A stretch of DNA of 32,000 nucleotides from an uncultured Gemmatimonadota bacterium (GCA_964394085.1 CAYMWF010000014.1:27167-59166); one strand, 5' to 3'; positions 7,200 through 25,753 are shown, counted from the stretch's first letter. Numbers and translations: made by a program. Notes: generated from the letters alone by a model not told the origin.

Positions 7200-7338
7200 A
7201 CCTCCTTAAGCCGGCCGGTGATCAGGTCAGTTTGATGAATTTCGTTTTGGAGGGTGTGTTGCGCTTTTACGCTATATTGTCGATACGTGCGATATGTCGT
7301 TATCGGATTCTTTCCGGCAGGGGAAAGGGGGGAACGGT

Positions 7339-11221: not shown

Positions 11222-11255
11222 TCCTTGTTCAACAAGTGTTGATCTGAATCATGCA

Positions 11256-11300
11256 GGAGGGGGAGCGCTCTACCCAACCGAAACGAAGGGTTCCCCCTCC
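11256..11300 (+). other. GC-rich 9-bp inverted repeat (hairpin) downstream of etfA
   Basis: GGAGGGGGA (11256-11264) is the exact reverse complement of TCCCCCTCC (11292-11300), with a 27-nt loop. No U-tract follows on either strand, so it is not a classical terminator. Confidence 0.5.
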
Positions 11301-12194
11301 AGTCGACCTCATTCCGGAACAGCCGGTGTGTGAATGGTTGTTTGAGAATCGAATACCCGCCTCGTATTGTTTCATCAGGGCGTCTTCATAAGCTCCCCTC
11401 GTACGAGCTCTTTGCGATGCGCAGAACTGATTATATATCAGGAGGATATAGAAGCATCGCAAATCGATTTACCCCATATTTCCACCATGTTTATTGAACA
11501 TACGGCAGCGGTTTCTGTTCGAGTCGGGAAATTGACCCCATGGATACCGGCACGCTCCAGGCGGTGAGGGAGCGTCTTCCCTTCTCCCTGTTTCCGTAAA
11601 GTTGCTTTTCAACCAGGTTCAGAAGATTCGAAAGGAACATGTGTTCCTGAAAAACTCTTGTCCGAACCCCTCCCGGATGACTCCGCTATATCCGCCTGTC
11701 GGAAAGACGCTCCCTCATCGACTCCACGGTGACGGGAACTGGGTAGGGAAACTCTGTAACATATTGAAGTTGTTGCTGGAATTTGGTGGTTGGAAAAAAT
11801 AATATGGCAGCCTGAACTACAAAACCAAACTACCGGATTGGCCGGTAGAAGGAGGGAGAATCAGAATGAGCTGATGAGGAGTCTGGTCAAATCAGCTGCA
11901 TAGATTGAAGACAAAAGCAACGGAGGTCAAGCCGGAGAGAGAAACCTGTACCAAACACCACTATACATCATGATAAATGATACGTCTCCAATATTGTGAA
12001 CTTCAATATCCATGTCGCACTCATCGAATAAGCTGCAATACCGGGGAAAGAGATGACTCCCTGGATAAATCCCTTAAAAAACACCTGCAGCGCAAATAGC
12101 TCCGTACAGGTAAACCTTGACATATCCATTCAAAACTTGCGGCTTGATCAATTACAGTCGGCCAAGTCGACTTGATTTCGAGTGAACCAGGATA

Positions 12195-12521
12195 TCAATT
12201 CATGTGGAAACGACGGATGTTGAACGGAAGAGAATCATCGGTAACCGACTGAAAAGGGTCATTCTCATGAATCATTTCATCCGGTCGCCTATCCCGAAGT
12301 TTATTTTCAGGCGCTTGTCCCTGCCACACATCGGCCATGATCTGTTTGATGCGTCCCGAGAGAAAAATCCGGATTTTACGGTAATTCCTTTCAGGAGCTC
12401 GGGCCGGTGCCGGCTGGGGTAAAAAGCAGGAGGTAACAGCAATAGCAAGAAGAGACGGAAAAAACAACGGAACGAATATCCATGAAAGATATTTGTTCTG
12501 TGCATGCATGCTCGTGTTCAT
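12195..12521 (-). CDS. small hypothetical protein with N-terminal signal peptide or membrane anchor
   Basis: 108-aa ORF. GAGGA lies 7 nt upstream of the ATG (minus strand ...GCTGAGGAAAACTGATG). There is a hydrophobic N-terminus 'YLSWIFVPLFFPSLLAIAVTSC', then a Pro/Arg-rich hydrophilic tail. A sigma54-type element sits about 45 nt upstream. I recognise no family. Confidence 0.4.
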   Translation of the reverse strand: MNTSMHAQNKYLSWIFVPLFFPSLLAIAVTSCFLPQPAPARAPERNYRKIRIFLSGRIKQIMADVWQGQAPENKLRDRRPDEMIHENDPFQSVTDDSLPFNIRRFHMN

Positions 12522-12563
12522 CAGTTTTCCTCAGCACCCTGTCTCTTTTACCGTGTTAGAATA

Positions 12564-12580
12564 TTGCAACTGGCATGCCG
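12564..12580 (-). promoter_or_regulatory. sigma54-type -24/-12 promoter candidate
   Basis: The minus strand reads CGGCATG-CCAG-TTGCAA, against the consensus TGGCACG-N4-TTGCW. The GG and GC dinucleotides have the correct spacing. It points at the small ORF whose ATG is at 12521. Confidence 0.35.
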
Positions 12581-12939
12581 GAAGAGGAACGAGGTCAAGT
12601 TATGCTGTAATGCAATGATTTAAAATACGTTACGGAGAATTCGTTTAATCGCCGGGTTCATTTCCCCTGGGTGAATTGCAGATGTCAATGCATAATGCAC
12701 TATCACCCGATAACATCCTGGATGGGTCTTTTACCGCAGAAGGCTGGGTGAAACAGCCCATGCAAACCGGTTCTACCCCGGTTTGTGAGAGCGGTTTCAC
12801 ATTTGTGGATCGCGTAACCCACTTATTTACCAATGATTAAACATTCCTTAACCACTTTCTTCAGACATGTGGTATACAATTTGCACAAACTCGAGCTAAG
12901 TTGAATACTATGGGATAGTTGCCCGATGGGGAGAGCCGA

Positions 12940-13593
12940 ATGAAAATGAGAAAATTAATCACCACCTGCTTCGCCCTGATCCTTCTCCTTCCGAATGTAT
13001 CTTTGTGTGCCAACGGCGATTATGAAATTCAGGGTGGAGACAGGCTTTATATCGAAGTAATGGATCATACGGAATTGAGTAAAAGCGTAACAGTAAGACC
13101 GGATGGCAAAATATCTTTTCCTCTCATCGGGGATATCTATGCCCGCGGTTTCACTGTAACGCACCTGCAGGAAGTGCTGACGGAAAAACTCGCAGATTAT
13201 GTCCGAGGTACTCACGTCACGGTATTCGTCGAAAGATTTTTCTTCAGCCATGTGCTCGTACTCGGTGCCGTAAAGAATCCAGGCCCGCTTGAAATTTTCG
13301 GTCCTGTGGATGTCATCCAGGTACTGGGAATGACCGAATCGGAAGACAGGGAACCGAAGCGCATCAGGATAATTAGGAAAAATGGAGATGTTACGACGGT
13401 GAGCCTCACCTCCGTGTGGAAGCAGGGGGGTGTGATACAGCACCGGGAAGATTTGCTTCTGCATCCCGGGGATACAATGATCGTTTACGAGAATACGAAA
13501 CTCACCTGGGAGATGATCATGCGTGTAATTATTCTAACGACATTCTTTATGACTGCCTACAATTTCACATATACAGTTACAACCCGCGATTAA
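12940..13593 (+). CDS. polysaccharide export protein (Wza/OPX-like: Poly_export plus SLBB)
   Basis: Signal peptide 'MKMRKLITTCFALILLLPNVSLC'. Poly_export pattern: 'YEIQGGDRLYIEV...VTVRPDGKISFPLIGDIYARGFTVTHLQEVLTEKLADYV'. An SLBB-like segment follows ('VLGAVKNPGPLEI') and there is a C-terminal hydrophobic helix. The ATG at 12940 is preferred over the TTG at 12919. Confidence 0.85.
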   Translation: MKMRKLITTCFALILLLPNVSLCANGDYEIQGGDRLYIEVMDHTELSKSVTVRPDGKISFPLIGDIYARGFTVTHLQEVLTEKLADYVRGTHVTVFVERFFFSHVLVLGAVKNPGPLEIFGPVDVIQVLGMTESEDREPKRIRIIRKNGDVTTVSLTSVWKQGGVIQHREDLLLHPGDTMIVYENTKLTWEMIMRVIILTTFFMTAYNFTYTVTTRD

Positions 13594-13622: not shown

Positions 13623-15758
13623 ATGACAGAAAAGACTGACAGAATGAAGAGAATCAAGGAGTTCCTGCCGGAACGAGGTGGAGAGGCGGCATCCGCGCCT
13701 AAAGATACACCTTTCGACATCCGGCAGTACTACTCGGTTCTCATGCGGCGGAAAGGGCTGATACTCCTGGTAACGGCACTTTTCTGTTTCGTATCGATTT
13801 ACCATTCACTCAGCAATGTTCCGGTATACCAGTCCACGGCAAAGCTGCTCCTCGAGTCCGGGGGCGGGCTGGTGGTTCTCAACCAGAAGCTGACCTATGT
13901 GCCGGGGTACTCGATGAACACATTCATCGAAATTATGAAATCTCCGATGGTGCTCGGTAAAATAATCGATCGGCTGAACCTGGATATGACACCCAAGCAG
14001 CTGTTGAACCATGTCCAGTACCAGCCGAATCAGAATTCGAACATTCTGAGCATATCAGTAACCCATCCTGATGACAGGTTGGCCAAGGGCATTGCCCAGA
14101 CCGCAGCCGAGCTTGCCGTGGAAGAAGTCAATAACATCTATAACGCTTCCACTACCAACGCATACAATACAATCAATGAGCAGCTCGAAATAACCAAGGT
14201 CCAGTTGATGAAGGCCGAGGAGAGCATCAAAGAATTCCTCGCATCGAAGGGTTACAGGAATATCAAGAGCGAAACGACTGCCAAGCTCTCCCGTCTGGCC
14301 AACCTTACCTCCCGATACAACGATTCAAGGGTCGAGATGAACACCAATTCCAAAGTGCTGGAATACCAGCGGACGACACTTGAAGAAACGCCGGATCTCA
14401 TTCTTAAGGAACAGACGATTACAACGCCAATCCAGATGGAAATCGTCAAGCTGGAGACCGAGCTGGCCAAGAGTCGGATAAGCTATTCCGAAAACCACCC
14501 CAAGGTGCAGTCTCTCGTCGGTAATATCGAAGCCCTGAGAGAGCTGATCGGAAACGGAGTCGAAGATGATCTGACCGTGGAAACGGTTGGTGAAAATCCG
14601 GTGAAGCAAGCACTGCTGAATGAGATTAACCTGCGGAAGTCCGAACAGGTGCAGTCTCATGCAAGACAGACTGAGCTTGCACGGTTGATCGATGAGGTCG
14701 AGTCAAGGTTGAGAAACGCACCTTCCGATGAATTGACCCTCGCCCGCCTCGAGCGTGAGAAAAAAGGACTCGAGAATACGTACTTCTCGCTTCTGTCTAA
14801 ATTCGAGGAAGCGAGAATGATGAAAGATACATCCGCCGGCAACCTGAGCATTCTCGAAGAGGCGGATCTCGTCGGCCCCATCCGTGACAATATTTTCGTC
14901 AACCTGCTGTACGCACTTATCCTCGGGCAGATCATCGGAGGGATCCTGGCGGTAATAATCGACACCCTCGACCCGAGAATCAAGTTCAGCTCCAAGATCG
15001 AGGATTCTCTCGGGATACCCGTCCTGGGTCTCATTCCCGATTTGAGAGAAGATGAGCGTTTCGTAAGGTTCGATTCACCGAAATCGAGGATTACGGAAGC
15101 TTACCATATAATAAAATCGAACATCAATAACGCCATGCCGAAAGACCGGGCATGGACCCTCATGGTGACAAGCGCCTTCCAGGGTGAAGGCAAAACGCTC
15201 ATGAGCACCAACCTGGCTACCGCGATGGCGCTTACCGGCAAACCGACCGTACTTATCGATGCGGATATGAGACGCACCTATCTCCATGAGCGCTTTAAAC
15301 TTCAAAAACATGGTGGTCTGTCGGAATATCTCTTAGGCGAGGCAGGGCTCGAAGATATACTGAAAGACACGGATGTCCCCAGCCTGAAAGTCATTACAGC
15401 GGGCAGAAAACCTCAGAATCCGGCTCAATTGCTCCATTCACCCGAGATAACCAGGCTCTTCGAAGATCTGATCAAGCGAGGTTACTATGTAATAGTCGAC
15501 TCACCGGCTCTTCTGCCGATTGTCGATTCATCCATCATGGCAACATACGTAGACGGTGTAATACTGGTATTCAAAGAAGAATCCACCAGGAAATACACCG
15601 CACAGAAGACGATTGAAAGAATGGTTCGGATCGGTGCGAACATCACCGGCTCGATTTTAAACCAGGCTTCAATCAAGGGATACGGTTACTATTACTACTA
15701 CGGATACCGGTATGGGTACGACTATGGGTATTCCGAAAAAATGGAAACCGGCGCCTGA
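13623..15758 (+). CDS. polysaccharide co-polymerase / bacterial tyrosine autokinase (Wzc/GumC/ExoP-like PCP-2a)
   Basis: Two TM segments ('GLILLVTALFCFVSIY', 'FVNLLYALILGQIIGGILAVII') flank a long coiled-coil periplasmic region (Wzz/GNVR-like). The cytoplasmic P-loop has Walker A 'SAFQGEGKT' (GEGKT at 15183-15197), A' 'VLIDADMRR' and B 'YVIVDSPALLP'. The C-terminal tyrosine cluster is 'YGYYYYYGYRYGYDYGY' (15681-15731). Confidence 0.9.
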   Translation: MTEKTDRMKRIKEFLPERGGEAASAPKDTPFDIRQYYSVLMRRKGLILLVTALFCFVSIYHSLSNVPVYQSTAKLLLESGGGLVVLNQKLTYVPGYSMNTFIEIMKSPMVLGKIIDRLNLDMTPKQLLNHVQYQPNQNSNILSISVTHPDDRLAKGIAQTAAELAVEEVNNIYNASTTNAYNTINEQLEITKVQLMKAEESIKEFLASKGYRNIKSETTAKLSRLANLTSRYNDSRVEMNTNSKVLEYQRTTLEETPDLILKEQTITTPIQMEIVKLETELAKSRISYSENHPKVQSLVGNIEALRELIGNGVEDDLTVETVGENPVKQALLNEINLRKSEQVQSHARQTELARLIDEVESRLRNAPSDELTLARLEREKKGLENTYFSLLSKFEEARMMKDTSAGNLSILEEADLVGPIRDNIFVNLLYALILGQIIGGILAVIIDTLDPRIKFSSKIEDSLGIPVLGLIPDLREDERFVRFDSPKSRITEAYHIIKSNINNAMPKDRAWTLMVTSAFQGEGKTLMSTNLATAMALTGKPTVLIDADMRRTYLHERFKLQKHGGLSEYLLGEAGLEDILKDTDVPSLKVITAGRKPQNPAQLLHSPEITRLFEDLIKRGYYVIVDSPALLPIVDSSIMATYVDGVILVFKEESTRKYTAQKTIERMVRIGANITGSILNQASIKGYGYYYYYGYRYGYDYGYSEKMETGA

Positions 15759-15819: not shown

Positions 15820-15942
15820 AAGTTATTGATAAAAGAACAGGGTCACACCAAATTGGGATTCGTCGCAAAGCGATCAAACAATTGAATTGAATACGAAATT
15901 TCTGTAGGATGCGGTTTGATCGCTGAATTCACGGGAGGAAAT

Positions 15943-17508
15943 ATGAATAGAAGGGACTGCCTGCGTATTATTTTTTCACTGGTCATACTCTCATTTACGG
16001 TCTTGACAGCGACAGCCCAGATGGTGAGCGGCGGTTCGGATGACGATAACCGGCAGGCTGAAAGAGGCAAACTCGGTCTTTTCGAAGCCGAGTATGAAGG
16101 CGAGTTCGGCCGGCAGCTCGAATCCAAATTGATGAAGCTTACCGGGAGTGAATATTTTCTGGTGCAGGTGGATATCTCACTCTATGCAGAACAGGACAGA
16201 GATCGTTTCGGCGGCATGACCTATGATAACAGGGCGTCCTTGCCCGGATTACCCGTATCACGATCGACGGAGGTGGATGAAGGCAGCGAAAATTATTTCA
16301 TCTCATCGATGAATATTCAACTTTTTTACGATGAGAGCATTGATCAGGAAATTCTAGCCGAAGCCAGAAAATGGGTGCCTTACTGGCTTCCTACGGACAA
16401 TGCCAATCTCGAATTCATTCCCGTGACCTTTAACAGAGAACTCGGCTATGCGGACCGTCTGAAAATGTTTTTCATGTCACTGGCCGGAGTCGTTTTCGCA
16501 CTGCTTCTTCTCCTGGGTTTGTTCCTTCTATTCAAAATGATTTCGAAAACTTTGAAGTCCGCGCTCAGGGAAGGGAGTGACATGGACGCCAGTCTGATCA
16601 GTGAAACAGAAGGTGGTGGAGCGCCGACGCCCGGATCCGGGGTCGGCGGCGATCAGGGGGATGGTGATGGGGCTGGTGGAGCCGGTTCGTCTTCACTCAG
16701 TGATCTGGCCGAGCAGCTGGGTGACGCCGAATCCCTTGACGGATTATCGGGAATGATGGGTGGCGGACCCCAAAAATCGCAAGCGAGGAAATCGAAAGTG
16801 AGACCATTACACGAAAAATCTTTTGCGTTTCTGCTGAACTTGTCAGACGAGCAGATACTGAGCCTTATAAGAGAGTTACCCCCACAGCACATCGCGGTTG
16901 TACTGTCAAGTTTTATTCCCGAACGGGCCAGCGCTCTTTTCAGGATGCTGGACAGCGATCAGCAAATGACGATTGCCGAGCTTCTTGCAGATGAAGATAC
17001 GATACAGAGCGAAGAGCTTCTCCAATTAAAGGAACTGCTGCAGGAGCGTCTCCGCAGCAGGTTCATAGAACCGATGGAAGTGAGCAGGGGAGGAGAAGGC
17101 TTTTTCTCTTCACTTACTTCGCATCTCGACCTGGGTCTGCTCTCCAATCTCGTGGATAATCTCAAAGATCGCAACCCGGACCTTGCGCGGCAGATACGAA
17201 AGAAGCTGTTTCTGTTTGAGGATACTGTACAGCTCGAGGATAATGCGATAAGGATGATAATACAGGCAATCGATTTGAAGGTGCTCGCATTGGCATTGAG
17301 AGATTCGTCACTGGAGGTTAAGGATAAATTCATCCGGAACTGTTCGGACAGGGTACAGGACATAATCGAGGAAGAGCTTGAGATAAGTGTCTCTCAGCCG
17401 AATGAACTTGCCGAGCTTGCGCAAATTGAAGTCGTTAAACTAGTGAGGAATCTTGCAGAGGCCGGCCGGATCGAACTTCCGGTCGCCAATGAATTACCAA
17501 TTCAGTAA
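15943..17508 (+). CDS. membrane-anchored FliG-like protein: N-terminal TM/signal, ~150-aa extracytoplasmic domain, TM helix, Gly/Asp-rich linker, then FliG middle and C-terminal (torque) domains
   Basis: ATG at 15943 behind GGGAGG. TM1 'CLRIIFSLVILSFTVLTATA' follows 'NRRD'. TM2 'MFFMSLAGVVFALLLLLGLFLLF' (about 16465-16542) is followed by 'KMISKTLK', consistent with the positive-inside rule. Linker: 'GGGAPTPGSGVGGDQGDGDGAGGAG'. FliG_M-like: 'LIRELPPQHIAVVLSSFIPERASALFRML'. FliG_C-like: 'LFLFEDTVQLEDNAIRMIIQAIDLKVLALALRDSSLEVKDKFIRNCSDRVQDIIEEELE...QIEVVKLVRNLAEAGRIEL'. The last segment aligns position by position with the E. coli FliG C-terminus as I remember it. Confidence 0.8.
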   Translation: MNRRDCLRIIFSLVILSFTVLTATAQMVSGGSDDDNRQAERGKLGLFEAEYEGEFGRQLESKLMKLTGSEYFLVQVDISLYAEQDRDRFGGMTYDNRASLPGLPVSRSTEVDEGSENYFISSMNIQLFYDESIDQEILAEARKWVPYWLPTDNANLEFIPVTFNRELGYADRLKMFFMSLAGVVFALLLLLGLFLLFKMISKTLKSALREGSDMDASLISETEGGGAPTPGSGVGGDQGDGDGAGGAGSSSLSDLAEQLGDAESLDGLSGMMGGGPQKSQARKSKVRPLHEKSFAFLLNLSDEQILSLIRELPPQHIAVVLSSFIPERASALFRMLDSDQQMTIAELLADEDTIQSEELLQLKELLQERLRSRFIEPMEVSRGGEGFFSSLTSHLDLGLLSNLVDNLKDRNPDLARQIRKKLFLFEDTVQLEDNAIRMIIQAIDLKVLALALRDSSLEVKDKFIRNCSDRVQDIIEEELEISVSQPNELAELAQIEVVKLVRNLAEAGRIELPVANELPIQ

Positions 17509-17529: not shown

Positions 17530-17739
17530 ATGATCACGATTCATAGGCTGGACGGAACAGAACTGGTTTTAAATGCGGAACTTATCGAGAATCTGGAACG
17601 AAAGCCCGACACAATTATCACCTTGACCAACGGCAAACGCCTGGTTGCGAAAGAAAGTGTCGAGGATATTTGTGATCTGGTGATTGAATACAGGCGAACG
17701 GTTTACAGCCGGAAGAGAGATAAGGATGCAGGGGTCTGA
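17530..17739 (+). CDS. flbD: FlbD family protein (flagellar-operon small protein)
   Basis: 69 aa. 'MITIHRLDGTELVLNAELIENLERKPDTIITLTNGKRLVAKESVEDICDLVIEYRR' matches the FlbD family pattern (RLNG..., ..IE..PDT.ITL.NGKK..V.ESV.EV...V.EY). GGAGGA RBS upstream. It sits directly upstream of motA-motB, as in spirochaete and Firmicute flagellar operons. Confidence 0.88.
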   Translation: MITIHRLDGTELVLNAELIENLERKPDTIITLTNGKRLVAKESVEDICDLVIEYRRTVYSRKRDKDAGV

Positions 17740-17757: not shown

Positions 17758-18504
17758 GTGGGCGTATTCAGTTTATTAGCGTTAATGATTGGGTTTGTTA
17801 TCGTAGCGGGATCGATCGTACTGAACGGAGATCCGCAATGGTTCATTTTCTGGCCGGGAGTGGCGATTACCATGGGCGGCACAGCCTGTGTGGCGATAGT
17901 AGCATATCCGATTCGCCAGATCGGGCACTCGGCGAGAGTGTTTTTCCAGATGGCCGCCAGGAGGAATCCAAAACCCGAAAAGGCTTATGATCGACTCCTG
18001 GATATAGCCCGAACGGCCCGTCGCGAAGGATTCGTCGGCCTTTCGCTGGATGAGAAAAAAGACAGTAATCTGCAATTCCTCCAGACGGGAGTAGAACTTC
18101 TGGCGGATGGAGCCGATCCCGACCAGATTACCGCGATTATGGATTCCAAGTCGGATATGGTTTCGGAGGAATACCTGGTAGGTGAAAAACTTTTTACGAC
18201 GCTGGGAACCGTCGCACCGATGTGGGGCCTGCTCGGGACCGTTATCGGTCTCATCCTCATGTTGAATAATGTCGATAATCCTGAATTGATTCCCAAATCG
18301 ATGGCGATCGCCATGGTGACGACTTTTTACGGCATTTTTCTTGCGGCTCTTTTTATGATTCCTATTGCCATGAAATTCAAAAGCTTCAGAGAGAAGGATG
18401 AAAAAATCCGGGAGATGATTATAAGAGGGGTTCTCTCAATCCAGTCCGGCGACAGTTCCAGGATCGTGCAGGAGAAACTCGAATCTTACAACCTTCTGAG
18501 GTAG
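17758..18504 (+). CDS. motA: MotA/PomA-type stator channel subunit (MotA_ExbB family)
   Basis: GTG start behind AGGAG. Four TM segments. The cytoplasmic loop is charged ('ARTARREGFVGLSLDEKKD'). TM3 is 'LGTVAPMWGLLGTVIGLILML' and TM4 is 'AMVTTFYGIFLAALFMIPIAMKF', each with the conserved Pro. At 248 aa it has no long C-terminal tail. Confidence 0.88.
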   Translation: MGVFSLLALMIGFVIVAGSIVLNGDPQWFIFWPGVAITMGGTACVAIVAYPIRQIGHSARVFFQMAARRNPKPEKAYDRLLDIARTARREGFVGLSLDEKKDSNLQFLQTGVELLADGADPDQITAIMDSKSDMVSEEYLVGEKLFTTLGTVAPMWGLLGTVIGLILMLNNVDNPELIPKSMAIAMVTTFYGIFLAALFMIPIAMKFKSFREKDEKIREMIIRGVLSIQSGDSSRIVQEKLESYNLLR

Positions 18505-18509
18505 GAATA

Positions 18510-19256
18510 ATGAGCACAAGAGGTCTTTATACTCAAAAGAAGCGAGCTGGCTCCGGAACCGCCCTCCCACCTTGGATTACAACCTACAGCGATCTCATCA
18601 GCCAGCTACTGGTTTTCTTTATCATGTTGTTTTCTCTGACAAAAGCCGGCAGGATCGTAGAGCTCCAGGAATCCCTCAAGGAGTTCCAGGAAAAAGTCGA
18701 AATGGGATACCTTGTCAAGGACGGTGAGAAGCCGGGTGAAGTGGTGCTGAGGCTGGAGGCGGAGGTCCTTTTCGATTCCGGAAAGGCTCTGTTGAAGGAG
18801 ACCGCCCGACCTGCGCTCGACAATGTATATGAAATCATCCTGGAAGACATAGATCGCAGGGGGGCCGCAACCATCAGAGTGGAGGGGCATACCGATACGA
18901 GGCCCATTCACACAGTGAGGTTCCCCTCCAACTGGGAGTTGTCGGCGGCAAGAGCCATCAGTGTCGTCAGGTATTTCCTGGCAAAGGGGCTTTTTACGCC
19001 GGATAATATGCAGGCGGTGGGCTTCGGAGAGTTCAAACCGATAGCTCCCAACGACACCTACGCGAACATGCAGAAGAACCGCCGGGTAGAGATCAAGATC
19101 ATCAGAACCAATATCACTACCGAGGATGTCGCATTTCCAACCCTTACCGAGGAAGGAATTATCACTGTCGATACACTCGGACAGGAGTTGGTAATTCCGC
19201 ATATCGATAAGAAATTCGAGGAATTTTTAGGGGAAATCGATACTGTCGAACAGTAA
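18510..19256 (+). CDS. motB: MotB-type stator subunit with OmpA-like peptidoglycan-binding domain
   Basis: The single TM 'PPWITTYSDLISQLLVFFIMLFSL' carries the conserved proton-binding Asp (YSDL). OmpA_C-like region: 'RVEGHTDTRPI...SNWELSAARAISVVRYF...NRRVEIKI'. It starts 5 nt after the motA stop. Confidence 0.9.
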   Translation: MSTRGLYTQKKRAGSGTALPPWITTYSDLISQLLVFFIMLFSLTKAGRIVELQESLKEFQEKVEMGYLVKDGEKPGEVVLRLEAEVLFDSGKALLKETARPALDNVYEIILEDIDRRGAATIRVEGHTDTRPIHTVRFPSNWELSAARAISVVRYFLAKGLFTPDNMQAVGFGEFKPIAPNDTYANMQKNRRVEIKIIRTNITTEDVAFPTLTEEGIITVDTLGQELVIPHIDKKFEEFLGEIDTVEQ

Positions 19257-19281: not shown

Positions 19282-22200
19282 ATGCAAACCAAAAGCAAAA
19301 CTTTACTAATCTTCACAACCATTTTTATTCTTGCTGCCCACCATGCCGTTCTCGCTCAGCAGGCGGAGTTTGATTTCAGCAGGTGGCCCGGAACCGTAAA
19401 CCTGGAAGGAGAACACTTGGGGGATCTCCTCGGTTCCACCGTCGTTGCCGGTGATTTTGACGGTGACGGGTGGCAGGATCTTGTTATCGGAGCACCCCAA
19501 TCTGATGAGCCGGGCAAAGCTTCCTGCGGCAAGGTATACGTTATTTACGGAAAAGCGGGATACGAGGGGAGCTACGTGTTAGACGATCCGTTCGTCGATC
19601 ATTTGACCCTCTCGGGTGATACAGGGAATGATGAACTCGGCAATGTTATCGATGTATGGGATGTGGAAGGAAACGGATCGGATGATCTGCTGCTGGGGGC
19701 TCCAAAGGCGGATGTCTCCGGTAAGGTTGATGCAGGAAAGATTTATCTGTTATACGGGGGATCAAGGACGACAGGGGAGTTCAATATCGGTGAATTTCCA
19801 GGTATGCTCCGGGTTGATGGAAACGAGGCTGCGGATCAGTTCGGCGCGTCGGTTGCAGCCGGTGATTTTACCGGTGATCTTGAAACCGATTTGATTGTGG
19901 GCGCTCCGCTTGCGGAGCCAGCCGGTGAAGCGTCTACAACGGGCATCGCCTATCTTCTGAAAGGACCGCTTGGAAGCGGAGTGAAAACTCTGGATGCACT
20001 TGCATCGATGGTAGTTTACGGCGAACAGACCGATGATCGCCTCGGTTCGCAGGTTCTCGGGCTTAATTTAAACGACACCGGTCCGGATGATATGGTCTTT
20101 GCCGCTCCCAACGCGGATCTGCCCGACGAGCAGAGGGAGCGAGGCATTCTTTACGTAATGTTCGGCTCAGGATCACTGCCCGCGGAGGTTGAATTGGCCC
20201 AGGGGGATTCCGCTGATGTGACGATGGCCGGAAATGCAGGCTCTTCCCGTTTCGGAACCGCACTCGATGGGGGTGATATAGACGGGAACGGGTACGATGA
20301 GATTGTAGCCGGGGCACCGGGCGGCGGAAGCGTATTGGTAATCGAAGGACGGTCGAGCTTCGACCCTTTCATCGATTTGACCTATTCCAGTCCCGCTCTG
20401 TCAATATCCGGCAGTGATTCTCTCGGGTCGGTGCTTCAGGTAAATGATTACACCGGGGATGGTCTGGCTGACATCTTTTTAGGTACACCTGCCACCGCTC
20501 CGAGCGGGAAAGCATACCTGGTAAACGGCGGTCCGTTGACAGGGGCATCAGGCTCGGTTCCCGATCTGGGCCGCTGTATTTTCAGCGGAGACAGAACCGG
20601 CGATAGACTTGGTCAGGCTGTCTGCCTGGGTGATTTTGTTAAAGACGGCAAACCCGATATGATCATCGGCGCTCCCCAGGCTGAGGGAGAAGAAGGTACA
20701 GATGCCGGGCTCGTTTATATCGTGAAGGGCGGGACGCCATACTTGACCGATCTTTATCCAGGATACGGGGAGAGTGGAATACCAGCGGATTTCGACATGG
20801 AATTCTGGATTCGGGATGACCTTACTGCAAGTGAAGAGGACATCAATCTCAACACATTGGAAGTATATCTTTCGGGGTATACCTTCACTGCAGCGGATTT
20901 CGACACCACGGGCTCAGTTGGTGCGGAGGCGATTCACGTGCTTCTCGATATAGTGCCCGGCACCTTCCTGCCCAATACAGCCGTCGACGCTGAGATAACT
21001 GGATTCGACAAGGCCGGTAACGAGATCCCGACGACACAGTACGTTTTCCATATGCTGAATGATTTCACGGGGCCTTGGCTCGAGAACATTGCTCCTCCGG
21101 ATTCTTCGAAATACCAGCCGGTTCAGCCGGAAATCGCCTTCAGCATTCTCGACGCCGCCAGCGGTGTGGATCTCGATGAAGTCTGGATGCATGTCGCCTA
21201 CGATACAACGGCGGGCATGCCCGTTACCGACACCTTCTTCCCTAAAACGGATACGTTGATCGTGGTTGACACCATTTCGGTATCCCCACTGGGATACAGA
21301 ATCAGCTATATACCGCCTGAGCCCTTTATGATGGGCGACCAGATACATGTAGAAGTCGAAGGAAAAGACTTCGCGGGTTTTCCTCTGCAGGATCCCCGGA
21401 AGTGGCTCTTTACCACGGTGGACAATGATACTTTACCGCCCATCCTACAGAATGAATTTCCCGCGAACGGCGCTTCCGGAGTAGAGGTCCAGGCTGTAAA
21501 TGTGGATGGCTTTCTGGTAGAGATCTATGATGAGCAAACAGGGGTTAATCCCGCATCCATAGATGTCACCAGGACTTACGAAGCTATTTCAGGAGACACG
21601 ACAGTATCGATCACAGATTTGATCGAAATCGGGAGAATTGATGCGAATCTTTATACTGTCTCGTATCGTCCGACCGGACAGGAAGGTGATCCTCAGTTTC
21701 AGTATGGCGAAACAGCCAGGTTCAATGTACGTGCTTTTGATCTTGCGTTCGAGCCGAACCTGATGGATACGACATATTCATTCATCCTCGAAACCGACAT
21801 AAATCCGCCGGAGATCACCGGACGGCAGCCGAACCCTGACCTGGTCGATTCGATATCGGTGTTCTCAGAAATCAAGTTCGATATCACCGATGACAAGAGC
21901 GGAGTCGATGACTCTACGATCGTTTTCAAGGTGAATAATGAAGAAATAGACATTGAGGACCTGATCTCTCCGAATGAATACCTGGGATATACGATCAGAT
22001 ACCCGAACATCCCTGACTCCCTGGAACAGGTGCCGCTCCCAGAAGATACGGTCACCGTTTCCGCCTGGGCCGCCGATAACGTCGGCAACGAGATGGTGCT
22101 GCCGGAAGAATGGAGTTTTATCGCCGTTCCGGATTCAAGAACGCCCAGGATGACATTTTCGATGGAAATGCTTCTGGTGGAGCAGTCCGACACTATAGAA

Positions 22201-22881
22201 GTCTGGGAGACAATCCCGCCTTCCGATTACCTCCTCAATAAAATCCCGCAGGACTCGATCCGTATCTCCTTTACCGTAACGGATACTATTGATGAATGGG
22301 AATCAGGTATCGACCTGTCGACGATGCTGATAATGATGGAGCTTGAGAATACCGGTCCGCCCCCGATCATTCTTCTCAGTGAGGGTGAGGAAACCCATAC
22401 CGGGTACAAAACCGGCACCATGGATATCGACGAAACTGAATCACCCGGTTTATATAACGTTAGTTTCGAACCGGACCGTCTTTCAATTGCCGAAGAGGTG
22501 ACACTGTCCGTCTCTGTCAGGGATAAGGGCGGAATCCAGGTGGTGGAGCAGTTACGGTTTAATATCAGTTACGGCGGAAGGCTCAATAAACCGTTCCCTC
22601 CTATAATCACTCCGGCTCATGGCTCAGATCCGAATAACCGAACGACAATCCTTTTCCTTGGTGAGGGTTCGGGAACATTTACGCTTTACAACCTTGAAGG
22701 ATACGCGGTTTACAGCGAGGAGAACATACCTCCTCTCAGCGGCTCCCTGTACAAAGTGACATGGGGCGGAGAATACGGCGCACCGGGGAGCAGCCAGAGA
22801 ATCGTACCGGCCGGTCTTTATGTATATCAATTCAAATCGAGCTCAAAGGTTTATAACGGCACAATCGCCGTAGCGCGTTAA
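19282..22881 (+). CDS. large secreted protein: signal peptide, seven FG-GAP repeats (integrin-alpha-like beta-propeller), about five tandem Ig-like modules, and a T9SS-type/FlgD-Ig-like C-terminal domain
   Basis: Signal 'LLIFTTIFILAAHHAVLAQQ'. Seven repeats end in ...GAP: GDFDGDGWQDLVIGAP, WDVEGNGSDDLLLGAP, GDFTGDLETDLIVGAP, LNDTGPDDMVFAAP, GDIDGNGYDEIVAGAP, NDYTGDGLADIFLGTP, GDFVKDGKPDMIIGAP (about 19399-20736). The module motif 'D..SG(V/I)D..(S/T)(I/L)' recurs roughly every 110-135 aa (about 20.8-22.4 kb). The C-terminal ~80 aa are 'FTLYNLEGYAVYSE...LYKVTWGG...VPAGLYVYQFKSSSKVYNGTIAVAR'. Confidence 0.8.
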   Translation: MQTKSKTLLIFTTIFILAAHHAVLAQQAEFDFSRWPGTVNLEGEHLGDLLGSTVVAGDFDGDGWQDLVIGAPQSDEPGKASCGKVYVIYGKAGYEGSYVLDDPFVDHLTLSGDTGNDELGNVIDVWDVEGNGSDDLLLGAPKADVSGKVDAGKIYLLYGGSRTTGEFNIGEFPGMLRVDGNEAADQFGASVAAGDFTGDLETDLIVGAPLAEPAGEASTTGIAYLLKGPLGSGVKTLDALASMVVYGEQTDDRLGSQVLGLNLNDTGPDDMVFAAPNADLPDEQRERGILYVMFGSGSLPAEVELAQGDSADVTMAGNAGSSRFGTALDGGDIDGNGYDEIVAGAPGGGSVLVIEGRSSFDPFIDLTYSSPALSISGSDSLGSVLQVNDYTGDGLADIFLGTPATAPSGKAYLVNGGPLTGASGSVPDLGRCIFSGDRTGDRLGQAVCLGDFVKDGKPDMIIGAPQAEGEEGTDAGLVYIVKGGTPYLTDLYPGYGESGIPADFDMEFWIRDDLTASEEDINLNTLEVYLSGYTFTAADFDTTGSVGAEAIHVLLDIVPGTFLPNTAVDAEITGFDKAGNEIPTTQYVFHMLNDFTGPWLENIAPPDSSKYQPVQPEIAFSILDAASGVDLDEVWMHVAYDTTAGMPVTDTFFPKTDTLIVVDTISVSPLGYRISYIPPEPFMMGDQIHVEVEGKDFAGFPLQDPRKWLFTTVDNDTLPPILQNEFPANGASGVEVQAVNVDGFLVEIYDEQTGVNPASIDVTRTYEAISGDTTVSITDLIEIGRIDANLYTVSYRPTGQEGDPQFQYGETARFNVRAFDLAFEPNLMDTTYSFILETDINPPEITGRQPNPDLVDSISVFSEIKFDITDDKSGVDDSTIVFKVNNEEIDIEDLISPNEYLGYTIRYPNIPDSLEQVPLPEDTVTVSAWAADNVGNEMVLPEEWSFIAVPDSRTPRMTFSMEMLLVEQSDTIEVWETIPPSDYLLNKIPQDSIRISFTVTDTIDEWESGIDLSTMLIMMELENTGPPPIILLSEGEETHTGYKTGTMDIDETESPGLYNVSFEPDRLSIAEEVTLSVSVRDKGGIQVVEQLRFNISYGGRLNKPFPPIITPAHGSDPNNRTTILFLGEGSGTFTLYNLEGYAVYSEENIPPLSGSLYKVTWGGEYGAPGSSQRIVPAGLYVYQFKSSSKVYNGTIAVAR

Positions 22882-22898: not shown

Positions 22899-24542
22899 AT
22901 GTTTTTCAAGGCTCGGAACCAGCTCATACTCTCTGTTCTGATCATCGTCGCTGCAGCTTTGCCTTCCGAGGCTTCTTTCGAGAGGAGGGCAGGAATCCGT
23001 GCGCTGGGTATGGGGGGCGCTTTTACCGGAGTCGCCGATGATGCTTCAGCCCCTTACTGGAATCCTGCCGGAATTGGGCGGTTTTCAGCGGTTGAATTCA
23101 GAGCCGAGTATGCCCGGCCGTTTACCGGAGCTGCAAACATTGATATCAACGATGTGGATTTTGCTTTCGCGTATCCTTTCGGTAACTGGGGAACCATGCT
23201 GGGTGGTTACGACTATCTCGGTAACTACCTGTACAATGAAGGAGTCGGGATTTTTTCATACGGCTTAGGTCTTCTCAAGCGTAAACCGCTTCTTGTCGGA
23301 TTTAATGCGCGTCTTTACAGTGTCAATTACAGCGTCGGGGGGCTTTCGTCCGTGGATGCAGGTCAGGTTAAGAAGGATCTCCTGTTTTCGAATTATGGAT
23401 TCGGTGAATCGGCTTTCGGCTTTGATCTGGGTGCTTTATACAGGTACCGGAATAAATGGACGGTCGGAGTTTCACTGTTCAATCTGAATGCACCATCGAC
23501 GAGCCTGAATCCGGACGATCAAGACGAACTTCCTCTCACTGGCCGGATAGGGATATCGTATTTATTCAAAAGGCTCACGGGAGCACTCGACCTGGAATAC
23601 AGGGATCAGTACTTCATGGACAGCAAGCCTGTATATATTCATACAGGCGTTGAGCAGGAGCTGTTCAGGAAACGACTGCACCTTCGGGCCGGTGCTTTCG
23701 GTATGGTTTCCCCCGAATTCTCACCCCGCCTTACAGCCGGATTCAGCTACAACTTCCTCAGAAGGGAATGGGTCGAATTCGGCACGGATCTTCTTGACGG
23801 CAAGGAATACCAGTATCTTAAACGGCTCTGGCTCACTCTCGAATACGGCGCGGCGTTCCCAGTTGCATCAGGTTCCTTTGAAGGCTCTTTCGGAGATCAG
23901 CGTATCGGTCTCAAAATCACATTCGACACTGCCAAGGAATACAAAAAATACATGACGCGCCAGGAACTGGAAGAAATGCTGAAAGACAAGAAGATAGAGG
24001 TCGCTCTCGATATCACCGAGTCGCTTCTCGAAAAGGAATTCGAGATCATCGAAGGTGAGAAAGAGATGATCCAGCAGGAACTCCAGGAGAGGTTCGACCA
24101 GGAACGGCAGGAGCTCATGCAAGACCTCGAGATGCAGCAGGAGCTGGAACTCGAGCAAAAACGTATAGAGCAGGATCTATTGACTGCAGGACAGCAGGAA
24201 GAGCTGGAAGAACAGATTCGTCAGTTGCAGGAGATTATCAGGCAGCAGCAGCGGGCGATCGAAATGAGCACCAAGACGAATGAAGCGCTTCAGCATCTCA
24301 TGCTTGCCGTCAGATATTATTTTCTGCAGCAGTACGGGGAGGCTGAAAAGGAATGTTATATAGCCATCGAGCTCGCCCCTCATATCGCACTGGCATACAA
24401 GCGTCTGGGATCGATTTACTACAAGCAGGGCAGGTTCAGCGATGCCAGCGCCGCATGGAAGAAGGCGCTTGATATCGATCCGACCGATGAAGAACTGCAA
24501 AATTGGCTTGAAAGATTCAGGAAAGGGAAAAATCTCGAATGA
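22899..24542 (+). CDS. outer-membrane beta-barrel (PorV/PorQ-like N-terminal signature) fused to an E/Q-rich coiled coil and C-terminal TPR repeats
   Basis: Signal 'LILSVLIIVAAALPSEA'. 'RALGMGGAFTGVADDASAPYWNPAGIG' is followed by alternating aromatic/Gly-rich strands to about aa 343. The coiled coil 'QQELQERFDQERQELMQDLEMQQELELEQKRIEQD...' spans about 23934-24269. The TPR-like tail is 'AVRYYFLQQYGEAEKECYIAIELAPHIALAYKRLGSIYYKQGRFSDASAAWKKALDIDP'. Confidence 0.7.
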   Translation: MFFKARNQLILSVLIIVAAALPSEASFERRAGIRALGMGGAFTGVADDASAPYWNPAGIGRFSAVEFRAEYARPFTGAANIDINDVDFAFAYPFGNWGTMLGGYDYLGNYLYNEGVGIFSYGLGLLKRKPLLVGFNARLYSVNYSVGGLSSVDAGQVKKDLLFSNYGFGESAFGFDLGALYRYRNKWTVGVSLFNLNAPSTSLNPDDQDELPLTGRIGISYLFKRLTGALDLEYRDQYFMDSKPVYIHTGVEQELFRKRLHLRAGAFGMVSPEFSPRLTAGFSYNFLRREWVEFGTDLLDGKEYQYLKRLWLTLEYGAAFPVASGSFEGSFGDQRIGLKITFDTAKEYKKYMTRQELEEMLKDKKIEVALDITESLLEKEFEIIEGEKEMIQQELQERFDQERQELMQDLEMQQELELEQKRIEQDLLTAGQQEELEEQIRQLQEIIRQQQRAIEMSTKTNEALQHLMLAVRYYFLQQYGEAEKECYIAIELAPHIALAYKRLGSIYYKQGRFSDASAAWKKALDIDPTDEELQNWLERFRKGKNLE

Positions 24543-25753
24543 CGGATCCCCCTGTCAGAGAGCACAGTTATTTAGCCAGGAATTACTCGAAAATCCAAAA
24601 AGGTGTATACCTGCTGTTATTACTGGCCCTGAGCGTGGCTGTTATACTGGTGATTTTCGCACTTATATCCTCTCCGGAGCAGAAATCTTATCCATTCAGC
24701 CCCGATAGTGATGAAGTTGCCAAGATGGTCTCGGTAACTGTCACGGGCTCCATCCACAGACCGGGAACATTCGAATTACCGGAAGGTTCGACTGTGTATG
24801 ATGCCCTGGTACTGGCGGGTGTCAAGAATACCGCGGACCTTGGAAACCTCGTTCTCGAACAACGCTTTGCCAGCAGTGAGAATTTTATCCATGTCGACGA
24901 AATAGAAAGGGATGAAGATGCCGCTGTAGACATGAATCCGTATATCGTACCGTTGATTGACAGTGGCGAAGACAGTTTAGAATCGAACAAAGGTAGTGAT
25001 ACCGGGGATGAAACTTCCGACATAGCCTCGTTAAACGTCGTCAATATACTTTATGTCGGAGCTCCTCATGTATTCCTTCTGGCATCTGTCGCTCCGGCGA
25101 CCGGAAACGGATCGTTTCTGGTGATCCCGCCCCAGACCCGAATTTCTCATCCCAGGTCCGGAGCCGGCAATCAGCTCAGCCACCTTTACCTTCTCGGCGG
25201 CGCCGGCTCGATTGTCGCATATGTCGAACGGCTCCTGCAATTACCTGTTCACTACTACGTGGAAGACAAGCAGGAAACGTTCATTACAACCGTAGAGCTG
25301 ATCGGAGGATTCCGAGTCAAGCTTGATAATGAAATAGCGGAGCATCTCCAAAAGGAGCCGGGATATCAAACCCTCACCGGGATGGACAGTTTTCGATTCA
25401 TTCAGTATTTCGATATATCCTCCAATGCGGATACTTACAGGAGAAGCACGCAGACCCGTATGTTGAGGTGGCGCCGATTCCTGGATTCCGTCTACGCTAA
25501 TTTTCGTGGCATGGACTGGCGTCAGACCATTCTCCTTGCAAGGCACATCATTCTCAACCTCGAGACGAACCTGGCACTGCAGGATGTTTTATATCTTGCC
25601 AGGAGCGCCAGAACCCACGGAGGGTTCAACTTCGACTTCCACCTGATTCAGGGTTCATACCAGAAGATCGGTGATAAGGTCTATTGGGAAATCGATGACA
25701 GCGTCGCCAGGATCGAGGGCTTGAAGCTTATTGAAATGGTTCTGAATCGGTGA
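24539..25753 (+). CDS. membrane-anchored SLBB-domain protein with divergent LytR-CpsA-Psr (LCP)-like C-terminal domain
   Basis: The ATG overlaps the upstream TGA (ATGA). TM 'VYLLLLLALSVAVILVIFALI'. SLBB pattern 'VSVTVTGSIHRPGTFELPEGSTVYDALVLAGV'. An acidic linker follows. LCP-like layout: 'NILYVG...FLLASVAPATGNGSFLVIPPQTRI...LYLLGGAGSIVAYVERLLQLPVHYYVEDKQETFITTVELIGGFRVKLD'. The usual Arg-containing motifs are not obvious. Confidence 0.6.
   Translation: MTDPPVREHSYLARNYSKIQKGVYLLLLLALSVAVILVIFALISSPEQKSYPFSPDSDEVAKMVSVTVTGSIHRPGTFELPEGSTVYDALVLAGVKNTADLGNLVLEQRFASSENFIHVDEIERDEDAAVDMNPYIVPLIDSGEDSLESNKGSDTGDETSDIASLNVVNILYVGAPHVFLLASVAPATGNGSFLVIPPQTRISHPRSGAGNQLSHLYLLGGAGSIVAYVERLLQLPVHYYVEDKQETFITTVELIGGFRVKLDNEIAEHLQKEPGYQTLTGMDSFRFIQYFDISSNADTYRRSTQTRMLRWRRFLDSVYANFRGMDWRQTILLARHIILNLETNLALQDVLYLARSARTHGGFNFDFHLIQGSYQKIGDKVYWEIDDSVARIEGLKLIEMVLNR

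Follow-up and report, generated by a model that had tools for sequence, protein, structure and literature searches.

Within a 32,000-nucleotide stretch of DNA from an uncultured Gemmatimonadota bacterium (GCA_964394085.1, CAYMWF010000014.1:27167-59166; the whole stretch is referred to here as the window), gene X at 15943..17508 encodes a single protein in which a periplasmic homologue of the third ring-building motif (RBM3) of FliF is joined through a transmembrane (TM) helix and a flexible linker to the middle and C-terminal domains of FliG. The gene is followed by genes for FlbD, MotA, MotB and envelope proteins, and we consider it probable that X is the one-polypeptide rotor subunit of a minimal, non-flagellar, ion-driven rotor-stator module for the cell envelope. 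The original prediction, made from the window sequence, took the gene on its own, as FliG domains tethered to the membrane; its view of the architecture was right, but the gene also has its own FlbD-MotA-MotB genes, an operon of envelope and exopolysaccharide (EPS) components, and a large family. The finding is larger than first stated, since X is an entry point to a widespread and uncharacterised system. The organisation of the gene is as follows, with positions counted in the window and residues (aa) in X.

15943..17508, + strand: gene X, 521 aa, FliF(RBM3)-TM-linker-FliG(middle+C) fusion, proposed to be a rotor subunit made of one polypeptide
15943..16017, + strand: N-terminal hydrophobic segment, aa 1-25 (MNRRD...LTATA/Q, the slash marking the putative cleavage point), from hydropathy and the AxA N-termini of relatives
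16018..16458, + strand: periplasmic RBM3/S-ring-like domain, aa 26-172, from profile homology, a fold model and a ratio of nonsynonymous to synonymous substitution rates (dN/dS) of 0.035
16459..16557, + strand: TM helix and basic patch KMISKTLK, aa 173-205, equivalent to FliF TM2, from Kyte-Doolittle (KD) hydropathy, profile alignment and models
16558..16812, + strand: disordered Gly/Ser/Asp-rich tether, aa 206-290, in place of the FliF C-tail and FliG_N, from composition, predicted local distance difference test (pLDDT) scores and dN/dS 0.32
16813..17067, + strand: FliG middle domain, aa 291-375, with a degraded EHPQR motif (LPPQ), from Pfam, the 1lkv alignment and a motif census
17155..17478, + strand: FliG C-terminal domain, aa 405-512, from a full-length Pfam FliG_C match, Foldseek and a charge census
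17347-17388, + strand: torque helix within FliG_C, aa 469-482, with R470 and E477/E478

The open reading frame (ORF) runs from 15916 or 15943 to 17508. The ATG at 15943, which was the predicted start, is preferred over the TTG at 15916 because a Shine-Dalgarno sequence, GGGAGG, lies 5 nt upstream of it.

The cytoplasmic part of X is FliG. Pfam FliG_C matches over its whole model (aa 405-512, 1.3e-25, 90 bits) and FliG_M matches aa 303-372 at 6.3e-9, and in a PDB sequence search the closest solved relatives of X are FliG middle plus C-terminal structures (1lkv, E 1e-25, aa 292-512). An AlphaFold model of the full-length protein (pLDDT 78) retrieves FliG structures first in Foldseek, among them FliG_C bound to MotAB, and the FliG_C of X superposes on one such complex (8ucs_H) with a template-modelling score (TM-score) of 0.92, normalised to the target. 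The fliG equivalog TIGR00207 matches X over profile positions 110-326 of 338 only, and the whole-protein score of 119.8 bits is below the curated cut-off of 226.7; because the alignment starts only at position 110, FliG_N is taken to be absent. It was not found in X by Pfam either, the weak FliG_N match (E 0.002) overlapping the middle domain at aa 314-407, and the predicted combination of middle and C-terminal domains without FliG_N is therefore borne out. An MgtE_N-type identity, which the original prediction had named as the outcome that would count against it, was rejected, with MgtE_N at E 1e-3 and 20 bits (cut-off 25.9) against the 90 bits of FliG_C; no MgtE is present among the PDB sequence or Foldseek matches of X.

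The residues of the torque helix are largely maintained. With E. coli FliG numbering, which we take to be transferable to X through the T. maritima alignment, four of the five charges are retained in window X: the equivalent of R281 is R470, those of D288/D289 are E477/E478 and that of K264 is R453, and R297 is replaced by P486, so that the alignment agrees with the prediction that R281 is kept, that the acidic pair is EE and that R297 is Pro. A segment of the middle domain, ELPPQH, does align to the FliM-binding EHPQ motif as was claimed, but the motif is degraded (E to L and H to P) and reads L-P-P-Q in a domain that is itself present. The same degeneracy is seen across 57 family members, in contrast to 46 canonical FliG proteins in which EHPQ is nearly invariant (motif census). 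Family members retain E at the D288 position (52 of 57), E or D at D289 (47 of 57), and a basic residue at K264 (42 of 57), as well as the Gly-Gly hinge and the [ILMV]FxF motif; the window clade also retains the R281 equivalent. Because the acidic pair, the hinge and [ILMV]FxF are kept while EHPQ has decayed, the residue pattern fits a rotor that still meets the stator and no longer meets the switch complex.

The ectodomain of X is solidly identified as a homologue of FliF RBM3, the S-ring motif. A family profile of the N-terminal region with X as its first row, searched against all PDB sequences, finds Salmonella FliF (6scn, residues 233-473) at E 1.2e-7, Vibrio FliF at 1.4e-7 and, as the second-best family, SpoIIIAG (5wc3) at 1e-4; the only other match is a chance-level chloride channel (E 0.6). 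Pfam PF08345 (YscJ_FliF_C, the flagellar M-ring C-terminal family) matches 25 of 54 family members, the best at 7e-10, and has no significant match to X alone. By hhalign the X-family ectodomain aligns with RBM3 of a naturally occurring full-length FliF-FliG protein at a probability of 96.6% and an E of 4.9e-10. In an AlphaFold model of aa 26-208 (pLDDT 83.6) a helix, a strand, a loose insert, a strand, a helix and a strand precede the TM helix; this modelled alpha-beta-(insert)-beta-alpha-beta order is that of a ring-building motif with an insertion, and the insert is short and carries an invariant LPG(L/V)P motif. In Foldseek of the ectodomain, FliF S-ring/RBM3 structures take the first place and recur among the top matches, where they are interleaved with OsmC/Ohr folds. 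An OsmC/Ohr-like fold was rejected, with Foldseek E values of about 3e-3 and above and without sequence support. The predicted resemblance to ring-building motifs of the YscJ/FliF type thus holds as FliF homology by profile, hhalign and fold, but is to RBM3 specifically: RBM1-RBM2 of the YscJ/PrgK type are absent, PF01514 (YscJ_FliF) being found neither in X nor among the 25 commonest Pfam families of the 54 members, and the periplasmic region of X is only about 150 aa.

The topology is probably simpler than that of FliF. Two hydrophobic segments are found, as the predicted two-TM arrangement had it, but the first looks like a cleavable signal peptide. Segment 1 (aa 5-28, KD about 2.0) has a 13-residue hydrophobic core followed by T-A-T-A/Q, and the N-termini of relatives are textbook Sec signal peptides, for example ...APAARA/ELE and ...LPSLA/SDS (the signal-peptide calls for X and its relatives were made by eye). 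Because of the short core and A-T-A/Q in segment 1, and AxA in the relatives, segment 1 is probably a cleavable Sec signal peptide and mature X a single-pass type I protein rather than a two-TM one. Segment 2 (aa 172-205, KD up to 2.8) is followed by KMISKTLKSALR; it is a helix in both AlphaFold models, and the alignment from the N-terminal profile search extends as far as TM2 of FliF. The positive charges after segment 2 and the acidic ectodomain place the FliG part in the cytoplasm, as had been proposed.

Between the membrane and FliG lies the Gly/Asp/Ser-rich linker that had been noted at 16609-16770. Residues 206-290 include 20 Gly, 13 Ser and 13 Asp+Glu, and aa 218-290 have pLDDT below 50 in the full-length model, such that about 75 aa are predicted to be disordered. 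The description of X as a natural FliF-FliG chimera, with a flexible covalent tether substituting for the contact between the FliF C-terminus and FliG_N, is supported by the domain homologies on either side. A database protein listed as 100% identical to X (P0001) differs from it at two positions, both in the Gly-rich linker, which reads GGGAPTPGSGVGG in window X and GGVAPTPGSGGGG in P0001, and because of these few residues an exact database look-up of X came back empty.

Gene X heads a seven-gene same-strand block in which successive genes are separated by 21, 18, 5, 25 and 17 nt and the last two overlap by 4 nt. Genes for Wza and Wzc are immediately upstream of X, and glycosyltransferase genes are situated downstream of the operon. 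The neighbours of X are listed here.

12919-13593, + strand: Wza-like outer-membrane polysaccharide exporter (Pfam Poly_export 8e-23)
13623-15758, + strand: Wzc-like chain-length/tyrosine-kinase co-polymerase (Pfam Wzz/GNVR/P-loop; TIGR01007 above cut-off)
17530..17739, + strand: FlbD, 69 aa, of a small flagellar family usually ahead of motAB (Pfam PF06289 3.3e-24)
17758..18504, + strand: MotA/PomA-type stator A subunit (PDB PomA 5e-39; NCBIfam PomA/MotP/MotA 1e-44 to 1e-50)
18510..19256, + strand: MotB-type stator B subunit (Pfam MotB_plug 2.3e-9 and OmpA 5.7e-18; PDB MotB/PomB/MotS matches)
19282..22881, + strand: secreted FG-GAP repeat protein, 1199 aa (Pfam FG-GAP 2.5e-36; signal peptide by eye)
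22899..24542, + strand: putative outer-membrane barrel of the PorV/PorP/FadL superfamily with C-terminal tetratricopeptide repeats (TPR), 547 aa (NCBIfam, Pfam)
24539..25753, + strand: SLBB plus LytR-CpsA-Psr (LCP) glycopolymer ligase-like protein, with a TM helix at its N-terminus (Pfam), the last same-strand gene

Pfam and related scans of the 32-kb window reveal no flagellar gene besides X-FlbD-MotA-MotB, and the remainder is housekeeping.

Judged from its sequence, the partner MotAB is a flagellar-type stator that is closest to PomA and is not of the ExbB/TolQ type. The rotor-facing basic and acidic residues of PomA, R88 and E96, have retained equivalents in MotA, and MotB has a plug, a channel Asp (TYSDL) and an OmpA-like peptidoglycan-binding domain. 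The NCBIfam score of MotA is 172 bits against a PomA cut-off of 341, and because such equivalog cut-offs are not reached the window MotAB are regarded as divergent members of the stator families. We note that the acidic MotA residue that pairs with R281 in flagella is present in all family-associated MotA proteins, despite a Gly that is common at the R281 column of X (see below).

The barrel fold of the 547-aa protein is suggested by sub-threshold family matches (PorV_fam 1.1e-13, 51 bits, cut-off 90; Pfam PorP_SprF 1.4e-5), which are accompanied by TPR. The C-terminus of the FG-GAP protein resembles, below threshold, a sorting domain of the type IX secretion system (T9SS): it matches CHU_C at E 0.054 and TIGR04183/Por_Secre_tail at E 0.039 (13.9 bits, cut-off 23), and its orthologue in the related locus L080 matches CHU_C and TIGR04131 at 4e-6, the latter with 26.9 bits against a cut-off of 35.

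The family to which X belongs was collected by exhaustive profile search, and the best 150 representatives at 50% identity were examined. At least 57 of these are family members, including window X and a few N-terminally truncated sequences, and dozens of proteins show one uninterrupted profile match from position ~6-30 to ~500. Most N-terminally complete members have a signal peptide, an ectodomain of about 170 aa, a TM helix, a linker and the FliG middle and C-terminal domains (FliG_MC), and most members also carry a C-terminal TPR extension of 120-240 aa that is missing from the window clade. The named members are from Elusimicrobiota and Omnitrophota, and are annotated as 'TPR protein', 'FliG C-terminal domain-containing protein' or 'FliG'. 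A one-genome-per-species scan with a 10-sequence Elusimicrobiota sub-alignment, which by design recovers only that clade, found 71 loci, nearly all from Elusimicrobia, Elusimicrobiota or Endomicrobia and three titled 'bacterium'; one of the 71 sits in a closed 3.8-Mb genome, CP096137.1. Other routes gave little: a word-indexed homologue search found four proteins only with X and fragments only with the N-terminal profile, and a scan of genome contigs with X alone found no relative.

The surroundings of X are conserved to different extents in different clades. FlbD adjoins MotA in 54 of 80 related loci, and barrel-TPR homologues, which are homologous across clades, are present in 62-64 of the 80. 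The order X-FlbD-MotA-MotB is common to the window clade (four lineages), the Omnitrophota-type loci and Elusimicrobiota species. In the four lineages of the window clade it extends to X-FlbD-MotA-MotB-FG-GAP-barrel/TPR-LCP, with Wza/Wzc upstream wherever the contig reaches; the LCP gene is conserved in L001, L005 and L080, Wza/Wzc are syntenic in L001 and L005, and Wza/Wzc/LCP/GT4 (the last a glycosyltransferase) flank the X module in the window, L001, L005 and L080. Elusimicrobiota have a near-uniform order of barrel-TPR, X, a proline-rich coiled-coil protein, FlbD, MotA, MotB and a small protein. No other flagellar gene is present near the family module in any of about 80 loci.

Three further features were noted in the related loci.

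L007:12010-13917, L003:6830-9289 and L004:12293-14962, with about 56 Elusimicrobiota loci: proline-rich coiled-coil protein
L007:15766-16446 and L003:11120-11836, with about 32 Elusimicrobiota loci: conserved protein of about 230 aa directly 3' of MotB
L008:12995-14558 and L081:12528-14150: tandem MotB paralogues after a single MotA, Omnitrophota-type

The first of these, encoded between X and FlbD, is cytoplasmic and about 600-900 aa long; it has a poly-proline N-terminus, a long coiled coil and no Pfam family. It co-occurs with the TPR extension of X, and the window clade is without both; because of this co-occurrence a partnership between the TPR and the proline-rich peptide is suggested. 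The second has no Pfam family, and one copy has a lipoprotein signal (LAAC). The Omnitrophota-type loci L008 and L081 have the order X-FlbD-MotA-MotB-MotB within EPS loci, and both contain a priming sugar transferase and a polysaccharide deacetylase; L081 has in addition exosortase EpsH/EpsI, glycosyltransferases and a flippase, and L008 has a Wzy_C polymerase/ligase gene.

In a neighbour-joining tree of FliG_MC the family is set apart from the 46 canonical FliG proteins, the sole intruder being a truncated family member, with bootstrap support of 23/40 for the family and 38/40 for the window clade. Because the family FliG_MC group apart from canonical FliG, the tree suggests that the fusion arose once.

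X and its operon partners are under strong purifying selection. Comparison of X with its 76%-identical orthologue in L001 gives a dN/dS of 0.08 overall, 0.035 in each folded domain and 0.32 in the linker, the fastest-evolving part of the protein, and values of 0.05-0.09 are seen for FlbD, MotA, MotB, the FG-GAP protein and the barrel; dS is saturated in this comparison and the ratios are approximate.

A plausible scenario for the module is the following. Sec export, probably with cleavage of the signal peptide, would put the RBM3-like domain in the periplasm, where it would oligomerise into an S-ring-like ring as FliF RBM3 and SpoIIIAG do. The single TM helix would span the membrane and the tether of about 75 residues would suspend FliG middle+C beneath it, the fusion setting FliF and FliG at 1:1 without FliG_N or the FliF tail. 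The stator encoded by the presumably co-transcribed FlbD-MotA-MotB genes, anchored to peptidoglycan through the OmpA domain of MotB, would conduct ions and push on the conserved acidic pair and the basic residues of the FliG_C torque helix, and the ring would turn. The module would operate without a FliM/FliN switch, export gate, rod, hook or filament, the switch being omitted from the model because the EHPQR motif has decayed. The motor may be coupled to the conserved PorV/PorP-like outer-membrane barrel with its periplasmic TPR and, in the window lineage, also to the giant FG-GAP surface protein, the LCP ligase and Wza/Wzc. By analogy with other envelope motors, its output most likely acts on a surface adhesin or polysaccharide, by moving, secreting or organising it, as in gliding-like motility or coat assembly.

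We also put forward, more tentatively and with some doubt, a wider interpretation: that the family as a whole is the rotor of an unrecognised, self-contained machine of the diderm envelope, made up of a FliF(RBM3)-FliG ring, MotAB/FlbD stators and the barrel-TPR protein, and driving surface motility or the extrusion or arrangement of polymers in Elusimicrobiota, Omnitrophota and the window lineage. Such a machine could have branched off from the flagellar motor and been pared down, or it could be an extant relative of a rotor-stator core older than the flagellum.

Comparison with flagellar FliF and FliG of Salmonella and Vibrio shows an RBM3/S-ring-type domain ahead of a TM helix, FliG middle and C-terminal domains with a torque helix, a 1:1 stoichiometry, a PomA/MotA-type stator and a MotB with plug and peptidoglycan-binding domain in common. 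X differs in having no RBM1-RBM2, no FliF C-tail and no FliG_N, which are replaced by a disordered tether, in having a probably cleaved signal peptide where FliF has TM1, and in the degraded FliM-binding EHPQR motif of its FliG part; the X loci differ in that no export apparatus, rod, hook or filament genes are nearby. Engineered FliF-FliG fusions, which share the RBM3/S-ring-type domain and TM helix, assemble rings and work (PDB 8z4d/8z4g; Vibrio fusion, PMC10941966), whereas X is a natural fusion.

A natural fusion of this general kind is known from Chlamydiaceae, whose FliF-FliG protein of about 330 aa has RBM2, an unassigned RBM and a FliG middle-like domain only, without an RBM3/SpoIIIAG-like domain (Bergeron 2016, PeerJ, PMC4768692). 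It resembles X in that a shortened FliF and a FliG-like cytoplasmic domain are naturally and covalently joined, and its host is not thought to be flagellated, which is also the reported state of many X carriers. X is set apart from the chlamydial description by its RBM3, its middle and C domains with the torque helix, and its own FlbD-MotAB. At the protein level X is a variant on known FliF-FliG fusions; at the system level it may represent a new kind of envelope motor.

The same genes have been encountered in Elusimicrobiota, most free-living members of which are without flagellar structural genes yet carry motAB, flbD and fliG (10.1101/2022.07.08.499144). That preprint works with KEGG-level gene names only and calls the orphan fliG/flbD/motAB 'enigmatic', with an unclear role; one of its genomes, '1499', carries family member P0013. 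The gene family, the genomes and the puzzle of motor genes without flagella are thus the same, but the preprint does not have the RBM3-TM-FliG fusion, the barrel-TPR operon or the clades outside Elusimicrobiota, and window X differs from the Elusimicrobiota members in belonging to a TPR-less clade within an EPS operon. A survey of flagellar loss likewise notes rotor proteins in species that do not move, and raises the question of a different role for them (PMC12199754). No publication describing the fusion architecture, the operon or its spread was found in a search that covered few subscription-journal papers.

Analogous ion-driven motors of the MotAB superfamily that move an adhesin or deposit a coat are the GldLM/T9SS gliding motor with SprB/SprF in Bacteroidota, and Agl-Glt/Nfs-Exo in Myxococcus. 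In the window, too, the gene for a giant surface protein whose C-terminus is T9SS-like is found close to those for a PorP/PorV-like barrel and for Wza/Wzc, though the T9SS-type matches are sub-threshold. Neither has a FliG or FliF homologue, and force is passed on by GldM or the periplasmic Glt proteins, whereas in the X system a flagellar-type MotAB would act on a FliG torque helix. SpoIIIAG, of the sporulation channel ring, resembles the X ectodomain as an RBM that contains an insertion, and itself builds a large homo-oligomeric ring; it differs in having no FliG fusion and no stator, and belongs to the sporulation machinery of Firmicutes.

Other joins between FliG and membrane or foreign segments were seen among the examined proteins. 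P0091 (787 aa) is a natural full-length FliF-FliG fusion with YscJ_FliF (RBM1-2), YscJ_FliF_C (RBM3), a second TM and FliG_M plus FliG_C; because it has no FliG_N, this domain has been dropped also in a fusion that keeps the whole of FliF. P0102, P0125 and P0150 (268-323 aa) have a single N-terminal TM helix directly before FliG middle+C (Pfam-checked for P0102), and P0140 (431 aa) has such a helix before a complete FliG (N, M and C). From these architectures FliG seems to have become anchored in the membrane on more than one occasion. P0027 (996 aa) combines FliM, five DUF4116 repeats and FliG_M/C, and P0113 (1699 aa) is TPR-rich, matches MotA_ExbB weakly and has two stretches of FliG_C.

Several observations weigh against a rotating envelope motor. 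A ring of RBM3 without RBM1/2, export gate or rod has no evident axle by which torque could be carried across the periplasm. The interface is not fully canonical, the R281 equivalent being Gly in 44 of 57 members ('MSxGAA', window aa 470) and the R297 equivalent being basic in none of the 57. The Elusimicrobiota loci, in which X has a TPR tail, are without EPS genes or the FG-GAP protein, and because partners vary between clades the output may differ by clade or be cytoplasmic; moreover, the T9SS-type matches in the window (PorV/PorP family and CHU_C/Por_Secre_tail) are all below curated cut-offs. The main rival explanation is accordingly a non-rotating stator-docking or energy-transducing platform: X would statically recruit or activate MotAB through FliG_C, and stator cycling would serve a Tol/Ton-like envelope energy transducer or a mechanosensor, for example one gating Wza/Wzc export. 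The lack of an axle or rod, the variation of partners among clades and the frequent loss of the R281 and R297 equivalents all suit a platform, as does a long flexible tether that would carry torque poorly, and in Elusimicrobiota the TPR tail and the adjacent coiled-coil protein could immobilise X. Such a platform does not account for the ring-building RBM3 being under the strongest constraint (dN/dS 0.035), as a ring requires, nor for a stator that is a flagellar-type torque generator closest to PomA rather than one of ExbB/TolQ type, nor for the retention of the FliG hinge motifs, and we regard it as unlikely, although it is to be taken seriously.

A quite improbable explanation, in our judgement, is that X is part of a genuine but unusual flagellum in which it replaces or supplements FliF and FliG, the other flagellar genes being elsewhere in the genome. 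Every recognisable domain is flagellar, FlbD-MotA-MotB is a typical flagellar trio, and a full-length natural FliF-FliG_MC fusion exists elsewhere (P0091). RBM1-RBM2 of FliF form the inner part of the MS ring around the flagellar export gate, however, and these are absent from X (no PF01514); the FliM-binding motif is decayed, about 80 loci have no flagellar gene nearby, the Elusimicrobiota carriers are reported to be without flagellar structural genes, and the operon partners are envelope or EPS proteins. That X and its neighbours are the decaying, functionless remnant of a lost flagellum is suggested by some non-motile bacteria that retain rotor genes without filament genes (PMC12199754), but is very hard to credit with dN/dS values of 0.03-0.09 across the operon, intact catalytic and interface residues, and an order and content that are kept in 71 species genomes and several phyla. 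Finally, the original prediction had itself raised the prospect of an artefact, in which an unrelated membrane-protein gene is joined to a truncated fliG in a chimeric or mis-assembled ORF. Nothing other than the unusual architecture speaks for this. The same architecture recurs on independent ENA, Logan, JGI and NCBI contigs from other samples and in the closed 3.8-Mb genome, and the profile match from ~6 to 500 is uninterrupted in dozens of proteins; the artefact was rejected, the ORF is regarded as real, and we attach practically no weight to the alternative.

To our knowledge FliG and flagellar-type MotAB work together only inside the flagellum. If X is a rotor subunit of an envelope motor, the core that generates torque would exist as a module of its own, put to a different use, in bacteria reported to be without flagella, and its separability from the type III export core would be a data point on the origins of flagella. 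A natural minimal rotor of one protein, with a fixed 1:1 composition and no switch, would also suit structural and single-molecule torque studies. The module would then be a candidate engine of motility or surface assembly for Elusimicrobiota, including the magnetotactic members (10.1101/2022.07.08.499144).

Among the other features of the window, we note that the Wzc-like protein (13623-15758) also matches two XrtA/PEP-CTERM-associated families, the chain-length determinant TIGR03007 (2e-37) and the tyrosine kinase TIGR03018 (4e-41), both below cut-off, a parallel to the exosortase genes that accompany the Omnitrophota-type homologue in L081. The interval of about 1.7 kb between the electron transfer flavoprotein (ETF) alpha gene and wza (11222-12918) has no + strand ORF of at least 100 aa and no Rfam match, and contains one 108-aa minus-strand ORF at 12195-12521; the syntenic interval holds an 83-aa gene in L001 and L002 and a 73-aa minus-strand gene in L005. 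The interval could serve the EPS/motor block as a long regulatory leader. Rfam shows no RNA family anywhere in the window, and promoter and terminator scans of the window are at background level. The relatives of FabF (7294-8577) beyond clusters P0179 (100%) and P0194 (80%) are 52-58% identical to it, the named ones being distributed over many phyla, and on this comparison the window lineage seems to be deeply branching.

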